Positions 1,266-39,666 of a DNA stretch of 64,000 nt are shown here, piece after piece. Origin of the DNA: Shigella phage Sf21; sequence record MF327007; one strand, given 5' to 3'. The translations under genes and the position numbers were made by a program. The number at the start of each line of letters is the position of its first letter. The first letter of the stretch is position 1. The notes beneath the pieces were generated by a model. It was given only the letters and a program-made list of their open reading frames with translations. It was not told the origin of the DNA and did not search any database.

Positions 1266-2281
1266 TGTGTTGCCTCTACATATAGCTGATTTGCATATTG
1301 AATAAGTGCTTCGCGATCAGAATCAGTGATGTCTGGAATTGCATTAATGTATTCTTCCATCAACGTCTGAAGAGATTGAACTTCAACTTCTTCACTGTCA
1401 TCTGACTCGACAGAGTTATCAATCTTTGACACAACTCGTAATGAATGCACAACTTTCTCTAGTTCAGATTCGAACTTCGTCAGATTTTTGTCTACTTCAG
1501 TTACTATAACACGTACTGATAGATTTGTAAAATCTTTATAGTCAATTTTTCCTTTAAATGGATAATGAATTCTACGATGCCAGGTAGTGTTGTTTGGAAT
1601 AAATTCCATTCGTTCTGTTTCTGTATCAAACATCCAGAACCCACGAGGGTCATTCTCGTCACCGGCAGTTAGTGTCCATGGTGTCCCAATATATCTGACG
1701 TTAGCAGCCTCAGAGATAGTATGGAAGTGACCAGACCACACCTCTTTATAAGTCTTAAGGAAATCAGGTTCAAGACCGTGAGATTTCATTCCTTTATAAA
1801 AATAAAATCCATTCAGTTCCCAGTGACCAACACAAAAAGAAGCAGATGAAGTTTTGATGTGCTCAAGAATTTCACCAGTATTTTCTTCACACATCCAAGG
1901 AATTAAATCAATTAAACATCCGTCAAAATCTACTGTAGTAGGCTTATCATATACTTTAACATTAGGATATTTAGCCAAAAGCTCAGTAGAGGCATTTGGA
2001 GTTAAAGTATTTTTAAAGTGCATATCATGGTTTCCTACAACAGTATGTAGGGTAATACCAGCATCATCAAGCATTTGAACTATTTCACGAGCGAACTCCA
2101 TAGTTTTATGCGTGATTGCTTTTCGCACATCAAAAATATCGCCGTATTGAATCCATGTAGTAATTCCATTTTTCTTAGAATATTCTATTGCTTGTTTAAT
2201 TCCATCCAACTGAATGGATTGAACCCACTCATCATCGGCTTTAACGCCTAAATGCCAATCACCTAAATTTAAAATTTTCAT
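1262..2281 (-). CDS. 47: Recombination endonuclease subunit gp47 (Mre11-like phosphoesterase)
   Basis: 339 aa; calcineurin-like phosphoesterase motifs GDWHLG, GDIFD, GNHD, GHFH. Confidence 0.93.
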   Translation of the reverse strand: MKILNLGDWHLGVKADDEWVQSIQLDGIKQAIEYSKKNGITTWIQYGDIFDVRKAITHKTMEFAREIVQMLDDAGITLHTVVGNHDMHFKNTLTPNASTELLAKYPNVKVYDKPTTVDFDGCLIDLIPWMCEENTGEILEHIKTSSASFCVGHWELNGFYFYKGMKSHGLEPDFLKTYKEVWSGHFHTISEAANVRYIGTPWTLTAGDENDPRGFWMFDTETERMEFIPNNTTWHRRIHYPFKGKIDYKDFTNLSVRVIVTEVDKNLTKFESELEKVVHSLRVVSKIDNSVESDDSEEVEVQSLQTLMEEYINAIPDITDSDREALIQYANQLYVEATQ

Positions 2282-28376: not shown

Positions 28377-28757
28377 TCAATTAGAAAATAAATTTATCCA
28401 AGATTGTTCTTTAATTAAAAATGGCTCAGAATCATATGCCATTAAACTCTGTGTGATTAGTCCTTTAAAAGGCCCATCAATAAATTCCATGGTAAAATAT
28501 GGAATTTTATTCATTAGCCGTGCATTAGGAGCCGTGCACAAAGCTCTGCATCCTTTGAATACGCCTTTTTGTAATTTGTATTGCTTGGGATAAAATTCGC
28601 TCAAAATGTTATTTTTTGCCAAAATTTCAAAATGATTCACCAATTTATTTTTAATAGTTTTTGGCGAAAAATAAAGATATTCGAAAAGCTGAGTGTCTGT
28701 CATCATTGCATTCCGATTACGAAAAACTGTGGACGAGTAATACCACCAATGCAACAT
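28377..28757 (-). CDS. Hypothetical protein (126 aa)
   Basis: ORF on gene strand. Confidence 0.5.
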   Translation of the reverse strand: MLHWWYYSSTVFRNRNAMMTDTQLFEYLYFSPKTIKNKLVNHFEILAKNNILSEFYPKQYKLQKGVFKGCRALCTAPNARLMNKIPYFTMEFIDGPFKGLITQSLMAYDSEPFLIKEQSWINLFSN

Positions 28758-29290
28758 TTACTATTACAGCAGTGTTGCACAGTTTCAATATGAATATCGT
28801 AAATTTTATCCATATCAGGAGATTTAACAGGCTCATCGATTATATACAAAATTCGCGAAAGAGATAAACCTCTGAACTTGCTTCCTTTATTACCGATAAA
28901 ACTACGGACAGAATCAGTAAATAAGCGGAATCGAATATCATCACTAGAATAACGAGAAAATTCTTTTTTAATGTGGCCTGCAGAAATTTTAGCGTAAGCT
29001 GAAGTATTAGAAAGAACAATAACTGTTCCACCGTCATACAGCCAATTAGCAGCAAAGTTAGTCACAGCAGTTGATTTACCAGATTGGCGTCCACCATCTA
29101 GTCGAAGTGTACAATATTGTTTAAGCAAGTCTTCAAATGGTGGGATATAATCGTTTTTACAAATTTCTTCTACTCTAGCATCAGAATGGTGTGTAAAAGC
29201 ATTCATCAGGGATAGATAAGGACCAGTTAAAAATGTTCTCATTTTATTCTCTCTAAATTTGGGCCATTCCATGGCGCATGAATTGTCCAT
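28703..29290 (-). CDS. Hypothetical P-loop protein (195 aa)
   Basis: GGRQSGKST Walker-A-like motif. Confidence 0.5.
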   Translation of the reverse strand: MDNSCAMEWPKFRENKMRTFLTGPYLSLMNAFTHHSDARVEEICKNDYIPPFEDLLKQYCTLRLDGGRQSGKSTAVTNFAANWLYDGGTVIVLSNTSAYAKISAGHIKKEFSRYSSDDIRFRLFTDSVRSFIGNKGSKFRGLSLSRILYIIDEPVKSPDMDKIYDIHIETVQHCCNSKCCIGGITRPQFFVIGMQ

Positions 29291-29395: not shown

Positions 29396-29869
29396 TTATT
29401 TGAATGATTTGACGTACTGAATAGAGCCTTTGCTATTCACGAAAGCGATTTTACCATTTTTATTATACATGGTAGCAGTACGCTGATAACCATAAGTTTG
29501 TTTACCAGATTGATAACCAACTAATGCAAAATTATCTTCGCCCATTTTATTCTGTTTGGCGCGGATACGTTCATGACCGTGTGCCATAAGAACCTTAGCG
29601 TCGCCAGTTGCAATGGATCTACGAGTTTTTTCATCTTCAACTGTATTAACAAAATCGTCAAATGAATCAAATTTAGCATGAGATTTATTATACAGTTTTC
29701 CATCTACTGCATAATTATATCCCTGTACATCCATCTCAACTTCTGTACCATCATCTAATACAGCAGTGATTTTTTGACCTTTTTTAAATTTCAAAAGATC
29801 AGTAAAAGATTCAGCAATAATTTGAGAATTAATAGCTGCTTCAGTGATAAATTCTTGATATGTTTTCAT
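29396..29869 (-). CDS. Internal protein (capsid-targeted, injected)
   Basis: N-terminal capsid-targeting sequence MKTYQEFITE; basic 157-aa body; adjacent to denV. Confidence 0.7.
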   Translation of the reverse strand: MKTYQEFITEAAINSQIIAESFTDLLKFKKGQKITAVLDDGTEVEMDVQGYNYAVDGKLYNKSHAKFDSFDDFVNTVEDEKTRRSIATGDAKVLMAHGHERIRAKQNKMGEDNFALVGYQSGKQTYGYQRTATMYNKNGKIAFVNSKGSIQYVKSFK

Positions 29870-29878
29870 GTGTTTCCT

Positions 29879-30295
29879 TTAAATGTAAATATTTTTGCCG
29901 TAGTATTTATACCAGTGTGGCTTCATTAAAATTTTTTCATCGAGTCGTTGTTGACTCAATTTAATAGCCGATTTGCATGGGTTATAATCATTTTTCCATT
30001 CTGCTGGAATATCGCTGATGTCAGGAACTTCAGTATCTTTTATACTAAACCCACGTTTTAAGCATTCCGTTATAATGTCTGATTGACGCTTTCGCAAAAA
30101 TTCTAACTTATCGTAAAAGAAAGTAACATGACCAGAACCTAAAATAAACTCGGAAGATATTTTAAAATCTTTAACCCGCTTACCATTTGCAACATGTTTA
30201 CGAACTATACCAAAAACACGCGGCAATTCACGGTATTCTGCGATTAAATGTTGATCAGCAAGTTCAGATACTAAAGTCAAATTAATACGAGTCAT
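29879..30295 (-). CDS. denV: Endonuclease V (pyrimidine dimer DNA glycosylase)
   Basis: 138 aa, [29 protein letters not shown]... Confidence 0.93.
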
Positions 30296-30354
30296 TTTAT
30301 CCCTCCAAGTAACTGTGAATATACTATCACAATTCTAGGAGAAAGTAAACAACT

Positions 30355-30885
<531 letters not shown>

Positions 30886-34388: not shown

Positions 34389-34521
34389 AGTTTTGTGAAA
34401 AAATTTTTTAAAAAGTTTTAGGGAATTCTAGGGTCAGGAGGGACAATTAAAAGGTAGGATAATATATTATAAAGGGTATAAACTAAATGATGCCCAGAGA
34501 GGCCCGGAAAGGCCTAGATAC

Positions 34522-34549
34522 CAAAAAGCCCCAACCTTTCGGCTGGGGC
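34522..34549 (-). terminator. Rho-independent terminator (minus strand) after the internal-protein-like gene
   Basis: Minus strand GCCCCAGCC-GAAA-GGTTGGGGC followed by UUUUU; near-identical to the hairpin at 35077-35104. Confidence 0.7.
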
Positions 34550-34557
34550 TAAGAATG

Positions 34558-35031
34558 TTATTTGATTTGTTTAGCAGACCAAATGCGGTCTTTAATAATT
34601 TTTTGGATGTCTTCAACATATTCAAGAGAGTGAACATGTGGGTTATCTTTGAAACTATAAGCACGAGCTAGCTTTTGGCCTTCAGTTTTGATTATCAAAA
34701 GTTCTTTAAGAATTGCTTCATACCTAGAGATAATTCCTTTAGCAATATTTTTTTCTTGTGCTGCTTTAGGATCAGCCTTAGGAGCAGGTTTACCTGAAGC
34801 CTTTGCAAAAGCAGCTCCAGTAGCAACTAAACTTTTCCAAGCCATACTAACTGCATTCCCTGTAAATCCTTCGGCTTTCATATCACGAGCAAATTGGAAT
34901 CGTGATTCATCGGAAGCATCTTTATAGGAATATTTACCCGCGGCAATGGCAGCTTTTGCAACAGCTTGAATTTCAGTGCTAGATGCTTCATTTAACACCG
35001 CTTCATTTAAAAATTGAGCATATGATTTCAT
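34558..35031 (-). CDS. Internal-protein-like protein (capsid-targeted)
   Basis: N-terminus MKSYAQFLNE resembles the IP capsid-targeting sequence; TATAAATA late promoter upstream; terminator hairpins on both sides. Confidence 0.6.
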   Translation of the reverse strand: MKSYAQFLNEAVLNEASSTEIQAVAKAAIAAGKYSYKDASDESRFQFARDMKAEGFTGNAVSMAWKSLVATGAAFAKASGKPAPKADPKAAQEKNIAKGIISRYEAILKELLIIKTEGQKLARAYSFKDNPHVHSLEYVEDIQKIIKDRIWSAKQIK

Positions 35032-35067: not shown

Positions 35068-35075
35068 TATTTATA
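35068..35075 (-). promoter_or_regulatory. Late promoter (TATAAATA) for the internal-protein-like gene 34558-35031
   Basis: Exact TATAAATA on the minus strand about 37 nt upstream of the ATG. Confidence 0.55.
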
Positions 35076-35076
35076 C

Positions 35077-35104
35077 TAAAAAGCCCCAACCTTTCGGTCG
35101 GGGC
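35077..35104 (-). terminator. Rho-independent terminator (minus strand) upstream of the internal-protein-like gene
   Basis: Minus strand GCCCCGACC-GAAA-GGTTGGGGC followed by UUUUU. Confidence 0.7.
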
Positions 35105-35105
35105 T

Positions 35106-35414
35106 AAGCCTTGCGGCAACCTTGTCGGGGTTCCACCTGCTAAGGCAAGTGTTTGTACGAAACGCCGGGATTCGAACCCGGTTATTAAGCAGTTGACGCT
35201 ACTCAATATTTTTAAAAGGCCATATCTCGACCATATCCGAACGTTCCGTCAAAAACGCTACTCGGCTTACGGCAAAGATATTTCCTCGAATCGATAATTC
35301 GGTGCGCCGTTTCTGCTGTGATGTAAGAGGGCATCAATAAACGCAAAGATTATTAACGCAATTCCTTACTCAGGGAACATCAGTCCGACGACTTACCGGT
35401 AGCGACCCGGTTTC
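35106..35414 (-). ncRNA. Candidate small stable RNA region with tRNA-like T-arm
   Basis: About 300 nt without a credible ORF; minus strand CCGGG-TTCGAAT-CCCGG T-arm-like element with acceptor-like pairing (CGGAACG/CGTTTCG) but no CCA; bounded by a terminator at 35077-35104. Confidence 0.3.
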
Positions 35415-35783: not shown

Positions 35784-35859
35784 TGGTCGAGGCAGTAGGG
35801 ATCGAACCTACGACCCAGGACTTAGAAGGTCCTTGCTCTTCCTTCTGAGCTATGCCCCG
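35784..35859 (-). tRNA. tRNA-Arg (anticodon UCU)
   Basis: Cloverleaf folded by hand from the reverse complement: acceptor CGGGGCA/TGCCTCG, anticodon loop CTTCTAA, T-arm GTAGG-TTCGATC-CCTAC, encoded CCA. Confidence 0.85.
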
Positions 35860-35863
35860 TAAT

Positions 35864-35939
35864 TGGGGTGACCGATGGGAGTCGAACCCATGACTACGAG
35901 AATCACAATCTCGAGTTCTACCAACTGAACTACGGCCAC
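35864..35939 (-). tRNA. tRNA-His (anticodon GUG)
   Basis: Acceptor GTGGCCG/CGGTCAC, anticodon loop TTGTGAT, T-arm ATGGG-TTCGACT-CCCAT, encoded CCA. Confidence 0.75.
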
Positions 35940-36033
35940 ATTAATACCTACTCCAACAATCAAGATGTCTTCACACGAAATTAAGAGAAGAGTGATCAGT
36001 TCAACCCCTATAATCGCGTCAAGTAGATATTAA

Positions 36034-36049
36034 TGTGACAGTTGTCACA
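36034..36049. promoter_or_regulatory. CRP-site-like palindrome TGTGA-N6-TCACA inside the tRNA array
   Basis: TGTGACAGTTGTCACA read directly; perfect half-sites with 6-bp spacer in the 114-nt gap between tRNA-Asn and tRNA-His. Confidence 0.3.
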
Positions 36050-36053
36050 AATT

Positions 36054-36129
36054 TGGCGGACGTGATAGGATTCGAACCTATAACCAATCGCTTAACAGGC
36101 GATCGCTCTGCCATTGAGCTACACATCCA
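36054..36129 (-). tRNA. tRNA-Asn (anticodon GUU)
   Basis: Acceptor GGATGTG/CACGTCC, anticodon loop CTGTTAA, T-arm ATAGG-TTCGAAT-CCTAT, encoded CCA. Confidence 0.75.
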
Positions 36130-36132
36130 AAT

Positions 36133-36219
36133 TGGTGGGGAGTGGTGGAGTCGAACCACCCGAGTCGCAATGACAATGAATTTACAGTCCACACCGCTAC
36201 CTCTACGGGATAACTCCCC
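36133..36219 (-). tRNA. tRNA-Tyr (anticodon GUA), long variable arm
   Basis: Acceptor GGGGAGT/ACTCCCC, anticodon loop CTGTAAA, T-arm GGTGG-TTCGACT-CCACC, 87 nt, encoded CCA. Confidence 0.7.
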
Positions 36220-36232
36220 CTAATTCTTAATT

Positions 36233-36307
36233 TGGTGGCCCTGGGTGGAATTGAACCACCATCTGGCGATTATGAGTCGCTTGCTTGAACCTTCCAGCTA
36301 CAGGGCC
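36233..36307 (-). tRNA. tRNA-Ile/Met type (anticodon CAU)
   Basis: Acceptor GGCCCTG/CAGGGCC, anticodon loop CTCATAA, T-arm GGTGG-TTCAATT-CCACC, encoded CCA. Confidence 0.75.
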
Positions 36308-36308
36308 T

Positions 36309-36384
36309 TGGTGCTGATTGACGGAATCGAACCGCCGACCTTCTCATTACAAGTGAGTTGCTCTACCTACTGAGCTAAATCAGC
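36309..36384 (-). tRNA. tRNA-Thr (anticodon UGU)
   Basis: GCTGATTTAGCTCAGTAGG...CTTGTAA...GGTTCGATTCC...AATCAGCACCA. Confidence 0.88.
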
Positions 36385-36389
36385 AAAAC

Positions 36390-36479
36390 TGGCGGAGGCG
36401 ATAGGATTTGAACCTATGAGTCGCCGGAGCGACTGCCGGTTTTCAAGACCGGTGCATTAAACCACTCTGCCACGCCTCC
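36390..36479 (-). tRNA. tRNA-Ser (anticodon UGA), long variable arm
   Basis: Acceptor GGAGGCG/CGCCTCC, anticodon loop CTTGAAA, 90 nt. Confidence 0.85.
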
Positions 36480-36481
36480 AG

Positions 36482-36555
36482 TCTCCGCGGCAGGATTTGA
36501 ACCTACGACATTCTGCTCCCAAAGCAGACGCTCTACCAAACTGAGCTACACGGAG
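36482..36555 (-). tRNA. tRNA-Pro (anticodon UGG), CCA not encoded
   Basis: Acceptor CTCCGTG/CGCGGAG, anticodon loop TTTGGGA, T-arm GTAGG-TTCAAAT-CCTGC; 3' end followed by CT not CCA. Confidence 0.85.
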
Positions 36556-36565
36556 TAAATTAAAT

Positions 36566-36639
<74 letters not shown>

Positions 36640-36644
36640 AAATT

Positions 36645-36731
36645 TGGTGCGAGAAGTGGGACTCGAACCCACAAGGAAATCATTCCGCAGCATTTTAAGT
36701 GCTGTGCCTTTACCAATTTGACCATTCTCGC
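36645..36731 (-). tRNA. tRNA-Leu (anticodon UAA), long variable arm
   Basis: Acceptor GCGAGAA/TTCTCGC, anticodon loop CTTAAAA, 87 nt, encoded CCA. Confidence 0.88.
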
Positions 36732-36732
36732 G

Positions 36733-36805
36733 CTGGGAATAAAGGACTCGAACCTTTGCATCTAGCAGTCAAAGTGCTATGCCTTACCAACTTGGCTAAT
36801 TCCCA
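36733..36805 (-). tRNA. tRNA-Gln (anticodon UUG), CCA not encoded
   Basis: TGGGAATTAGCCAAGTTGGTAAGGC...CTTTGAC...AAAGGTTCGAGTCCTTTATTCCCAG. Confidence 0.85.
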
Positions 36806-38283: not shown

Positions 38284-38311
38284 TTTATTCTCCTCAGTAG
38301 TTGATAGGGTA

Positions 38312-38341
38312 ATAGTATCACTACCCCATCTAAAAGTAAAC
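38312..38341 (-). promoter_or_regulatory. Early promoter (GTTTAC -35, 18-bp spacer, TACTAT -10)
   Basis: Same architecture; drives 38098-38283. Confidence 0.6.
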
Positions 38342-38575
38342 TTATTTTTTACGAAAAATTGATTTATTTTCTGCTGCCCATTTTTCAATAACTGCAGCAG
38401 GACCAGTAACAACAATTTTATCACCGTAATCTTCTGCGGCGAGTTGACCGAAATTATCTAATGCATCACGAAGAACTCCATGAGGCATTTCACCCATTTT
38501 ATCTTTCTTGCCAGTGTAAATAAACTCAACTTTTACATCAGCAGTTTCAGCAATAAATTCTTGGTAAGTTTTCAT
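38342..38575 (-). CDS. Internal protein (capsid-targeted)
   Basis: MKTYQEFIAE capsid-targeting N-terminus; own early promoter with 18-bp spacer; position just upstream of 57B as for T4 ipI. Confidence 0.65.
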   Translation of the reverse strand: MKTYQEFIAETADVKVEFIYTGKKDKMGEMPHGVLRDALDNFGQLAAEDYGDKIVVTGPAAVIEKWAAENKSIFRKK

Positions 38576-38609
38576 TTTGATTTCCATTTGGTTTTGTTTT
38601 GATAGGGTA

Positions 38610-38639
38610 ATAGTATCACAACTAAAACCCTATGTAAAC
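38610..38639 (-). promoter_or_regulatory. Early promoter (GTTTAC -35, 18-bp spacer, TACTAT -10)
   Basis: Same architecture; drives internal protein gene 38342-38575. Confidence 0.65.
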
Positions 38640-38651
38640 AACTTTGTGAAA

Positions 38652-38909
38652 TTATTTTAAATCTTCTAATCGTTTTTTCATCTTAGAACCATTTTTAGCA
38701 ATTTCTCCTGCATCGGAGCATAATGCTAAAAGTGCTTTAACTTTCGTTTGGTCTCCTTTAAAAGATGAAGGATCTACTGCAGCAGCAAGTTCTTTAATAC
38801 GAGAGAAAAGACGCTCAGCTTCAGCTAAAGCCATTCCAAGCTTTACTTCCATACCGTGGGAAGATTCAGTGATAGTAGTTTTTGTAGTAAACTCTTTGAA
38901 AGTTTTCAT
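38652..38909 (-). CDS. Internal-protein-like protein (capsid-targeted)
   Basis: MKTFKEFTTK N-terminus resembling the capsid-targeting sequence; own early promoter. Confidence 0.6.
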   Translation of the reverse strand: MKTFKEFTTKTTITESSHGMEVKLGMALAEAERLFSRIKELAAAVDPSSFKGDQTKVKALLALCSDAGEIAKNGSKMKKRLEDLK

Positions 38910-38938
38910 TTTATTTTCCTAATTAATTTTGATGAGAT

Positions 38939-38968
38939 AATAGTATCACTACCTCATCAGCATGTAAA
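38939..38968 (-). promoter_or_regulatory. Early promoter (GTTTAC -35, 18-bp spacer, TACTAT -10)
   Basis: Same architecture; drives internal-protein-like gene 38652-38909. Confidence 0.65.
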
Positions 38969-38981
38969 CAACTTTGTGAAA

Positions 38982-39666
<685 letters not shown>

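Follow-up and report, generated by a model that had tools for sequence, protein, structure and literature searches.

Three named internal protein genes and a probable unrecognised family in Shigella phage Sf21

Do four short genes of Shigella phage Sf21, alike in little more than their first ten residues, encode internal proteins (Ips) of the T-even phages, and are all of them known ones? The genes lie in a stretch of 64,000 nucleotides of sequence record MF327007, hereafter the window, at positions 29396-29869, 34558-35031, 38342-38575 and 38652-38909, and their products start with MKTYQEFITE, MKSYAQFLNE, MKTYQEFIAE and MKTFKEFTTK, respectively. An original prediction, made from the letters, had placed four capsid-targeted and possibly injected anti-defence proteins at exactly these coordinates and had named no strand; in the open reading frame (ORF) listing of the window all four are on the minus strand, and plus-strand translations of the loci are riddled with stops. 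Here, we describe the leader anatomy, family assignment, genomic slots and promoters of these genes as observed in the window, and we find it very likely that all four encode T-even Ips. Three are publicly named, as Ip4 (29396-29869), Ip6 (38342-38575) and Ip5 (38652-38909), while the remaining one, the 34558 gene, probably represents an Ip family that has gone unrecognised. It is the sole new item, and the finding is otherwise a correct rediscovery, because diverse anti-restriction Ips tagged with a capsid-targeting sequence (CTS) have been established since 1994.

The leader is the feature that the four genes share. Among the 601 ATG-started ORFs of at least 40 amino acids in the window, only these four had at least five of ten identities to the T4 CTS, MKTYQEFIAE, and 20 shuffled windows yielded one such ORF altogether. 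In a second test, each ORF N-terminus was scored against the leaders of eight named Ips, a reference set that included those of Ip4, Ip5 and Ip6 and excluded that of the 34558 protein, and the four genes took ranks 1-4 (z = 6.3, 6.1, 5.7 and 4.3), with the next ORF at z = 3.1. On the strength of the shuffles and of the ORF-wide scores we reject a chance origin of the leader, which had been called capsid-targeting-like in the original prediction and is indeed unique to these genes in the window.

Mutagenesis of IPIII has mapped targeting mostly to residues 4 and 7 and processing to residues 8 and 10, and cleavage by the prohead protease gp21 follows an L/I-x-E motif after leaders of 10-19 residues (PMC9026906). 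All four Sf21 genes start with MK(T/S)(Y/F)xxF, featuring an aromatic residue at position 4 and phenylalanine at position 7, and an L/I-x-E site is predicted in each: Ip4 has ITE10, Ip6 has IAE10, Ip5 has ITE15, and the 34558 protein has both LNE10 and LNE15. The decapeptides had been expected to end in glutamate, which is right for three of them; the fourth, MKTFKEFTTK, ends in lysine and has its ITE at residues 13-15, in the long leader type of T4 IPI (MKTFKEFTSTTTPVSTITE). In the predicted structures, low-confidence leaders are followed by confidently folded bodies. Additionally, Ip4 homologues have a second invariant glutamate (E20; codon 20, window 29810-29812) in a context of hydrophobic-x-E followed by S or A, and the LNE of the 34558 protein is repeated in tandem at residues 8-10 and 13-15 (codons 11-15, window 34987-35001). 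Judging from these residues, the E20 context of Ip4 or the second LNE of the 34558 protein could be an alternative or second gp21 site that would leave a longer propeptide.

By virtue of such a leader, each protein would have affinity for the prohead scaffolding core, and gp21 would then remove the leader after the L/I-x-E motif, at the sites listed above and, in the 34558 protein, at one or both of the two. Once mature, these small proteins would remain in the head beside the DNA and accompany it into the cell, and would therefore be present before any phage gene is expressed. Each Ip would be expected to block one host defence against the modified (hydroxymethylcytosine-containing or glucosylated) DNA as it enters, namely a type IV restriction enzyme. 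Injection with the DNA is established for the T4 IPs (PMC12373910, PMC3012670), and T4 Ip1, Ip2 and Ip3 are inhibitors of three different GmrSD type IV enzymes, one apiece (Silas et al. 2025, PMC12373910). Ip2 is not encoded by T2 or T6, and the plating of these two phages on the ECOR17 enzyme requires supplied Ip3 (PMC12373910).

Past the leader, the four proteins are unrelated, as had been claimed. In an all-against-all BLASTP comparison, similarity among them and to T4 IPI, IPII and IPIII was limited to the first 10-20 residues, with one exception: Ip4 aligned to T4 IPII with 28% identity over ~98 residues (E ~6e-6 in a ten-sequence database), and the same match was returned by tblastn on the whole window (33% over 79 residues, E ~2e-4). 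We do not count this weak alignment as homology. Apart from it, no T4 ip body was found anywhere in the window by tblastn, and neither search identified a close homologue of a characterised T4 IP among the bodies, in agreement with the original prediction that they would not resemble ipI, ipII or ipIII. A tblastn match of T4 IPIII at window positions 1643-1759 falls within the gene 47 homologue and was dismissed as noise. The predicted mature sizes range from 7.4 to 16.5 kDa, and three of the four proteins are basic, with isoelectric points (pI) of 9.1-9.5. Sequence searches of the PDB with Ip4 and the 34558 protein gave no meaningful match, and PADLOC and NCBIfam scans gave sub-threshold noise only. 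These two proteins were also modelled, and no structural relative of known function was returned (PDB, BFVD): the Ip4 model retrieved only Ip4 itself from BFVD, and the predicted structure of the 34558 protein had no informative relative. From its model, Ip4 would have a fold without a known relative.

Membership in the T-even internal protein class, as originally proposed, is borne out for three of the four genes by PHROG families of internal virion or head proteins and by their public names. Ip4 has a predicted mature form of 147 amino acids (16.5 kDa, pI 9.1), is covered end to end by Pfam DUF7412 (PF24183; E = 6e-96) and belongs to phrog_3155, 'internal virion protein'. The protein of phage T2 is 100% identical to it, UniProt Q38388, 'Ip4 [Enterobacteria phage K3]', is 99% identical, and the name Ip4 or ipIV is used for this protein in ime09, Kha5h and RB32. 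Among phages of Klebsiella, Salmonella and Serratia the identity is 61-71%, with 64 invariant columns. The homologue gp127 of Klebsiella phage ValerieMcCarty03 (70% identical) was abundant in the proteome of CsCl-purified virions, with 66 peptide-spectrum matches in each of the two phages analysed (PMC13119998 Table 3); in the literature, we found no virion-proteome evidence for Ip5, Ip6 or the 34558 protein. The Ip4 start codon is preceded, at a distance of 35 nt, by the late-promoter motif TATAAATA, and the DNA downstream of this motif, comprising the ribosome-binding site (RBS) and the leader (aaaatatttacatttaaaggaaaca), is the same as that found ahead of T4 ipII. The decapeptide leader of T4 IPII and IPIII (Ip2 and Ip3, inhibitors of the ECOR21 and ECOR17 GmrSD enzymes), MKTYQEFI(A/T)E, is identical or near-identical in Ip4 and Ip6, whereas the bodies are unrelated save for the alignment mentioned above, and the T4 genes lie between denV and e whereas Ip4 is placed between vs.8 and denV.

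Ip5 (predicted mature form of 70 amino acids, 7.5 kDa, pI 9.2) belongs to phrog_3499, 'internal head protein'. Its aligned residues 16-85 are 100% identical in T6, RB7 and RB68, and bas37_0261 of phage Bas37 (KarlGJung) is 98.8% identical to Ip5. The gene resides between 57B and trna.4, where T4 has the gene for IPI (IPI*, Ip1), the inhibitor of the E. coli CT596 GmrSD enzyme. Promoter and RBS are almost identical to those of ipI, and the long leader type, MKTFKEFT...ITE, is common to both proteins; mature IPI* has 76 amino acids and a pI of 9.0, and there is no sequence similarity between the two past the leader. The upstream region of Ip5 is almost base-for-base that of T4 ipI, and Ip5 therefore replaces ipI in the same slot, as also stated in the annotation of the RB32 record ('Ip5 ... 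replaces ipI').

The neighbouring Ip6 (predicted mature form of 67 amino acids, 7.4 kDa, pI 6.5) belongs to phrog_8111, 'internal virion protein', and is named ip6 or ipVI in fFiEco06, GiZh and VR7. An upstream ATG at 38587 (MEIKMKTYQ...) was rejected as its start in favour of 38575, which is the start annotated in public records and the one that places the leader at the N-terminus. Bas37 has two genes at its ipI locus according to the HIDEN-SEQ preprint (2025, bioRxiv 10.1101/2025.11.20.689424), and one of them, bas37_0260, is 100% identical to the window Ip6 and occupies the same locus. Its knockout makes the phage specifically sensitive to the McrBC type IV restriction of E. coli K-12 (bioRxiv 10.1101/2025.11.20.689424). 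Of the anti-defence effectors that the original prediction suspected in the four genes, Ip6 is thus one by way of a counterpart from which it does not differ at the protein level and which is required against McrBC (10.1101/2025.11.20.689424). Calling the proteins uncharacterised, as was done at the time, is outdated for Ip6 but still applies to the 34558 gene and, as regards their targets, to Ip4 and Ip5. Sf21 is a T2/T6-like Tequatrovirus, and DNA of the T2 and T6 type is only partly glucosylated, which would explain the need for an McrBC inhibitor in such phages, unlike in T4.

For Ip5, the same screen provides a lead. Insertions in bas37_0261 were depleted on uropathogenic E. coli CFT073 (log2 fold change -2.09, adjusted p shown as 0.00000; 10.1101/2025.11.20.689424, Extended Data Table 7) and were not depleted on CFE299 or CFE303 (10.1101/2025.11.20.689424); the text of the preprint is silent on the CFT073 depletion. 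As CFT073 carries a GmrSD homologue, c5421 (PMC4437046), Ip5 could plausibly have a type IV target. Several points weigh against the scheme of four injected anti-defence proteins. The CFT073 depletion is an unvalidated screen value, and the upstream neighbour 57B was mildly depleted too. When Ip4-10 were assayed against a panel of GmrSD variants, no reproducible inhibition was seen (PMC12373910 Supplementary Fig. 9), which removes the enzymes of that panel from the possible targets of Ip4 and Ip5. Phages T2 and T6 encode Ip4 and/or Ip5 and are restricted by the ECOR21, ECOR17 and UTI89 GmrSD enzymes (PMC12373910, PMC4437046). Finally, packaging, processing and injection of exactly these proteins are suggested by analogy with T4 Ip1-3, and it is by the same analogy that Ip4, Ip5 and the 34558 protein would have an anti-defence role.

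Strong promoters had been assigned to three of the genes, which was one too few, as a promoter-like element precedes all four: TATAAATA at Ip4 and the 34558 gene, and TTTACA-17-TACTAT at Ip5 and Ip6. Neither type is enriched over shuffles in the region: TATAAATA occurs 15 times (10.9 expected) and sigma-70-like sites occur 50 times (44.8 expected), and the promoter argument rests for this reason on position and conservation. The elements at Ip5 and Ip6 are of the early and not the late type, and there is no TATAAATA immediately upstream of either gene. This would suit proteins that act mainly when newly made early in infection, with the leader of secondary importance, and host-expressed IPIII without its CTS still rescues infection. 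We nevertheless consider such a mode of action very improbable for Ip5 and Ip6. IPI* is a classic packaged and injected protein although its gene in T4 has this very promoter, and T4 ipI, ipII and ipIII all have early-type promoters; moreover, an enzyme that cuts entering DNA must be blocked before transcription starts. The conservation of the leader, in turn, speaks for selection acting on packaging.

The 34558 protein, with a predicted mature form of ~147 amino acids (16.0 kDa, pI 9.5) that is within the range calculated for mature T4 Ips, is 97% identical to RB32ORF133c and 96.8% identical to bas37_0244. Its only PHROG match is phrog_2280, 'unknown function', and it is not in a family annotated as internal protein. 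The leader has Y4, F7, L8 and E10, that is, all four functionally mapped CTS positions. In the phrog_2280 family alignment F7 and L8 are invariant while the body diverges, and F-L-x-E is retained in the leaders of all full-length members, even at an overall identity of 37% (MKTYNEFLNE, MKSYAEFLTE, MLKFNEFLAE, MLEYSEFLKE and MKFKEFLAE). A distant paralogue (29% identity), represented by bas37_0243 and a counterpart in phage VIPECOOM01, starts with MKTYAEFLTE. An exhaustive search of representatives with the 34558 protein returned ten proteins, eight of which belong to the family, in full or as fragments; the remaining pair, both long, matched weakly in several stretches, which we put down to composition. 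In the model (pLDDT 77.7, pTM 0.56), a leader of low confidence precedes an N-terminal domain of three helices, after which come a linker rich in Pro and Lys and a long helical hairpin.

At the locus itself, a strong terminator hairpin, a T-run, TATAAATA (37 nt upstream of the gene), the gene and a second copy of the hairpin follow one another. The gene is enclosed between the two hairpin copies, which make up a direct repeat of 36 nt (34518-34553 and 35073-35108, 92% identical); at this place T4 lacks a gene and has one hairpin, with which rnaC ends. The repeat and its single copy in T4 therefore make the sequence look like a cassette of late promoter, gene and terminator that may have been inserted at the hairpin. 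On RB32ORF133c, the RB32 record notes nothing beyond 'flanked by 34 bp imperfect direct repeat'; the same direct repeat flanks the window gene, and the CTS reading is proposed here. Klebsiella phage KP1 (Jiaodavirus) also has hairpin, T-run, TATAAATA and CTS gene, with a different hairpin sequence, and Yersinia phage fHe-Yen9-01 (Tegunavirus) has the order found in Sf21, with both paralogues in tandem. The architecture of terminator and TATAAATA is thus kept in three genera, Tequatrovirus, Jiaodavirus and Tegunavirus. No 34558 homologue was found within the 24 kb of ValerieMcCarty03 examined, and its virion proteome is for this reason uninformative on the family.

Could the 34558 protein remain outside the virion, with a leader that is a relic or a product of convergence, such as a translation-initiation region or a remnant of cassette recombination, and with a cytoplasmic or unrelated role? 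Among the matches listed from 510 phage records, all are annotated 'hypothetical protein' and none is called an Ip, and the curated RB32 record names Ip4, Ip5, Ip7 and Ip9 but not RB32ORF133c. The leader is only 5/10 identical to the T4 CTS, its DNA is outside the repeat family common to Ip4, Ip5 and Ip6, and insertions in bas37_0244 had no fitness effect on the four hosts checked (10.1101/2025.11.20.689424). Against such a role stand the retention of the four mapped positions and of L-x-E across the full-length family, the leader of the paralogue, the late-promoter architecture kept across genera, the leader score (z = 4.3) reached from outside the reference set, and a pI like that of the T4 Ips. 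On balance we hold a protein that is left out of the head to be rather unlikely, and it is likely that the 34558 gene encodes a genuine packaged Ip. Further, it is fairly probable, at a lower level of confidence, that the gene defines an unrecognised family of capsid-targeted, gp21-processed and injected proteins, present in more than 500 T4-like phages of at least three genera, with two paralogous branches, encoded in a cassette of terminator and late promoter by the tRNA/rnaC region and directed at a defence not yet linked to any Ip. The bas37_0243 branch would, as part of the same proposal, be Ip-like and have become essential in a phage that has neither IPII, IPIII nor Ip4.

Bas37_0243 itself (187 amino acids, leader MKTYAEFLTEA; Bas37 MZ501089 6529-7092, minus strand) has no copy in the window. 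It is classed as Essential, with 1/48 TA sites hit (10.1101/2025.11.20.689424, Extended Data Table 7), and Ip4, ipII and ipIII are all missing from Bas37. An essential Ip-like protein would be unusual, and the preprint does not comment on it.

This essential CTS-bearing protein also lends support to a mainly structural role of the larger basic Ips, Ip4 and the 34558 protein, in core assembly or in charge neutralisation of the packaged DNA, as proposed for T4 IPIII. IPIII-minus and triple-IP mutants of T4 accumulate polyheads, and IPs co-purify with gp22 (PMC9026906); internal-protein lysines contact DNA phosphates (PMC3012670). The basic pI values of three of the four predicted mature proteins agree with such a role, as does the strong conservation of Ip4 across genera, which is unusually high for an effector in an arms race. 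However, T4 IPIII is itself a specific GmrSD inhibitor, active without its CTS when expressed by the host, and the orthologues of Ip5, Ip6 and the 34558 protein (bas37_0261, bas37_0260 and bas37_0244) are classed as non-essential in Bas37 (10.1101/2025.11.20.689424). Ip genes also come and go among close relatives. We therefore see a predominantly structural role as unlikely, and the two roles are not mutually exclusive.

The distribution of these genes is in line with Ips that are exchanged as units. T4 is without all four window genes, and its own are ipII and ipIII in the denV-e interval and ipI, which fills the ipI slot by itself; RB32 carries Ip4, RB32ORF133c and Ip5/Ip9/Ip7; Bas37 has both phrog_2280 paralogues together with Ip5 and Ip6; and the Sf21 window has Ip4, one phrog_2280 gene, Ip5 and Ip6. 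Compared with the Ip4, Ip5, Ip7 and Ip9 set of RB32, K3, T2, T6 and RB70, the window Ip4 and Ip5 are 98-100% identical and have the same flanking direct repeats, while RB32 pairs Ip5 with Ip9 and Ip7 and the window pairs it with Ip6. The denV-e slot is empty in Sf21, because just 59 bp (window 30296-30354) are present where T4 holds ipII and ipIII. A 71-nt early-promoter cassette occurs three times (38299-38369, 38597-38667 and 38927-38997; 62-83% identity), preceding the trna.4 homologue, Ip6 and Ip5, respectively, and a related 36-nt core lies upstream of denV (30321-30356). Leader-coding DNA is likewise repeated in Ip4, Ip5 and Ip6. From the arrangement of these repeats, the four genes appear to be exchangeable cassettes in variable Ip slots, bracketed by promoter, leader and terminator repeats. 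The slot pattern fits the picture of cassette shuffling that Repoila, Krisch and colleagues are said to have drawn in 1994.

The surroundings are those of a T4-like phage. More than 1,200 T4-like phage records match the 12 kb around the four loci, the closest being Escherichia phage 107 (Tequatrovirus; 97.4% identity, 98% query coverage). The gene order is T4-like, with vs.8, denV, e, nudE, e.2-e.8, an rnaC-like region, the tRNA cluster, trna.2-4, the ipI slot, 57B, 57A and gene 1, and all of these neighbouring genes are on the minus strand as well. The tRNA cluster (window 35784-36805) holds 11 genes (Arg, His, Asn, Tyr, Met, Thr, Ser, Pro, Gly, Leu and Gln), against 8 in T4, and the homing endonuclease gene segB is absent from it. 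The stretch at 35100-35400 aligns to the 3' end of T4 rnaC and matches no Rfam family. The vs.8 homologue (window 28703-29290, phrog_1488) has weak matches to P-loop and large-terminase N-domains (phrog_2, E = 5e-6), and its AAA and Terminase_6N matches fall under the Pfam cut-offs. The features of the four loci are collected in Table 1.

Table 1. Internal protein genes of the Sf21 window and their associated elements.
Feature	Position	Strand	Description and basis
Ip4 gene	29396..29869	-	157 aa, leader MKTYQEFITE followed by A; ORF, Pfam, PHROG, named homologues
Late-promoter motif TATAAATA of Ip4	29904..29911	-	Motif scan; within 3' end of denV
Candidate internal protein gene, orthologue of RB32ORF133c/bas37_0244	34558..35031	-	157 aa, leader MKSYAQFLNE followed by A; phrog_2280
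Late-promoter motif TATAAATA of the 34558 gene	35068..35075	-	Motif scan; right after terminator T-run
Terminator hairpin, upstream copy	35082..35105	-	10-bp stem; ends rnaC-like region in T4
Terminator hairpin, downstream copy	34527..34550	-	Repeat analysis, T4 comparison
Ip6 gene	38342..38575	-	77 aa, leader MKTYQEFIAE followed by T; phrog_8111
Early sigma-70-type promoter of Ip6	38610..38638	-	TTTACA-17-TACTAT with TG; part of repeated 71-nt cassette
Ip5 gene, T4 ipI slot	38652..38909	-	85 aa, IPI-type long leader MKTFKEFTTKTTITE followed by S; phrog_3499
Early sigma-70-type promoter of Ip5	38940..38968	-	Nearly identical to T4 ipI upstream region

The window adds little to the concept of Ips itself, and its value lies in the leads that it offers: the candidate family of RB32ORF133c-like proteins, Ip5 in relation to CFT073, the essential paralogue in Bas37, and the strongly conserved Ip4 with its fold without known relative. 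Host immunity encounters the Ips before any other phage molecule, and all Ips characterised to date disable one type IV enzyme apiece. The Ip repertoire of a T-even phage helps to predict its host range, which is relevant to the design of phage therapy cocktails.

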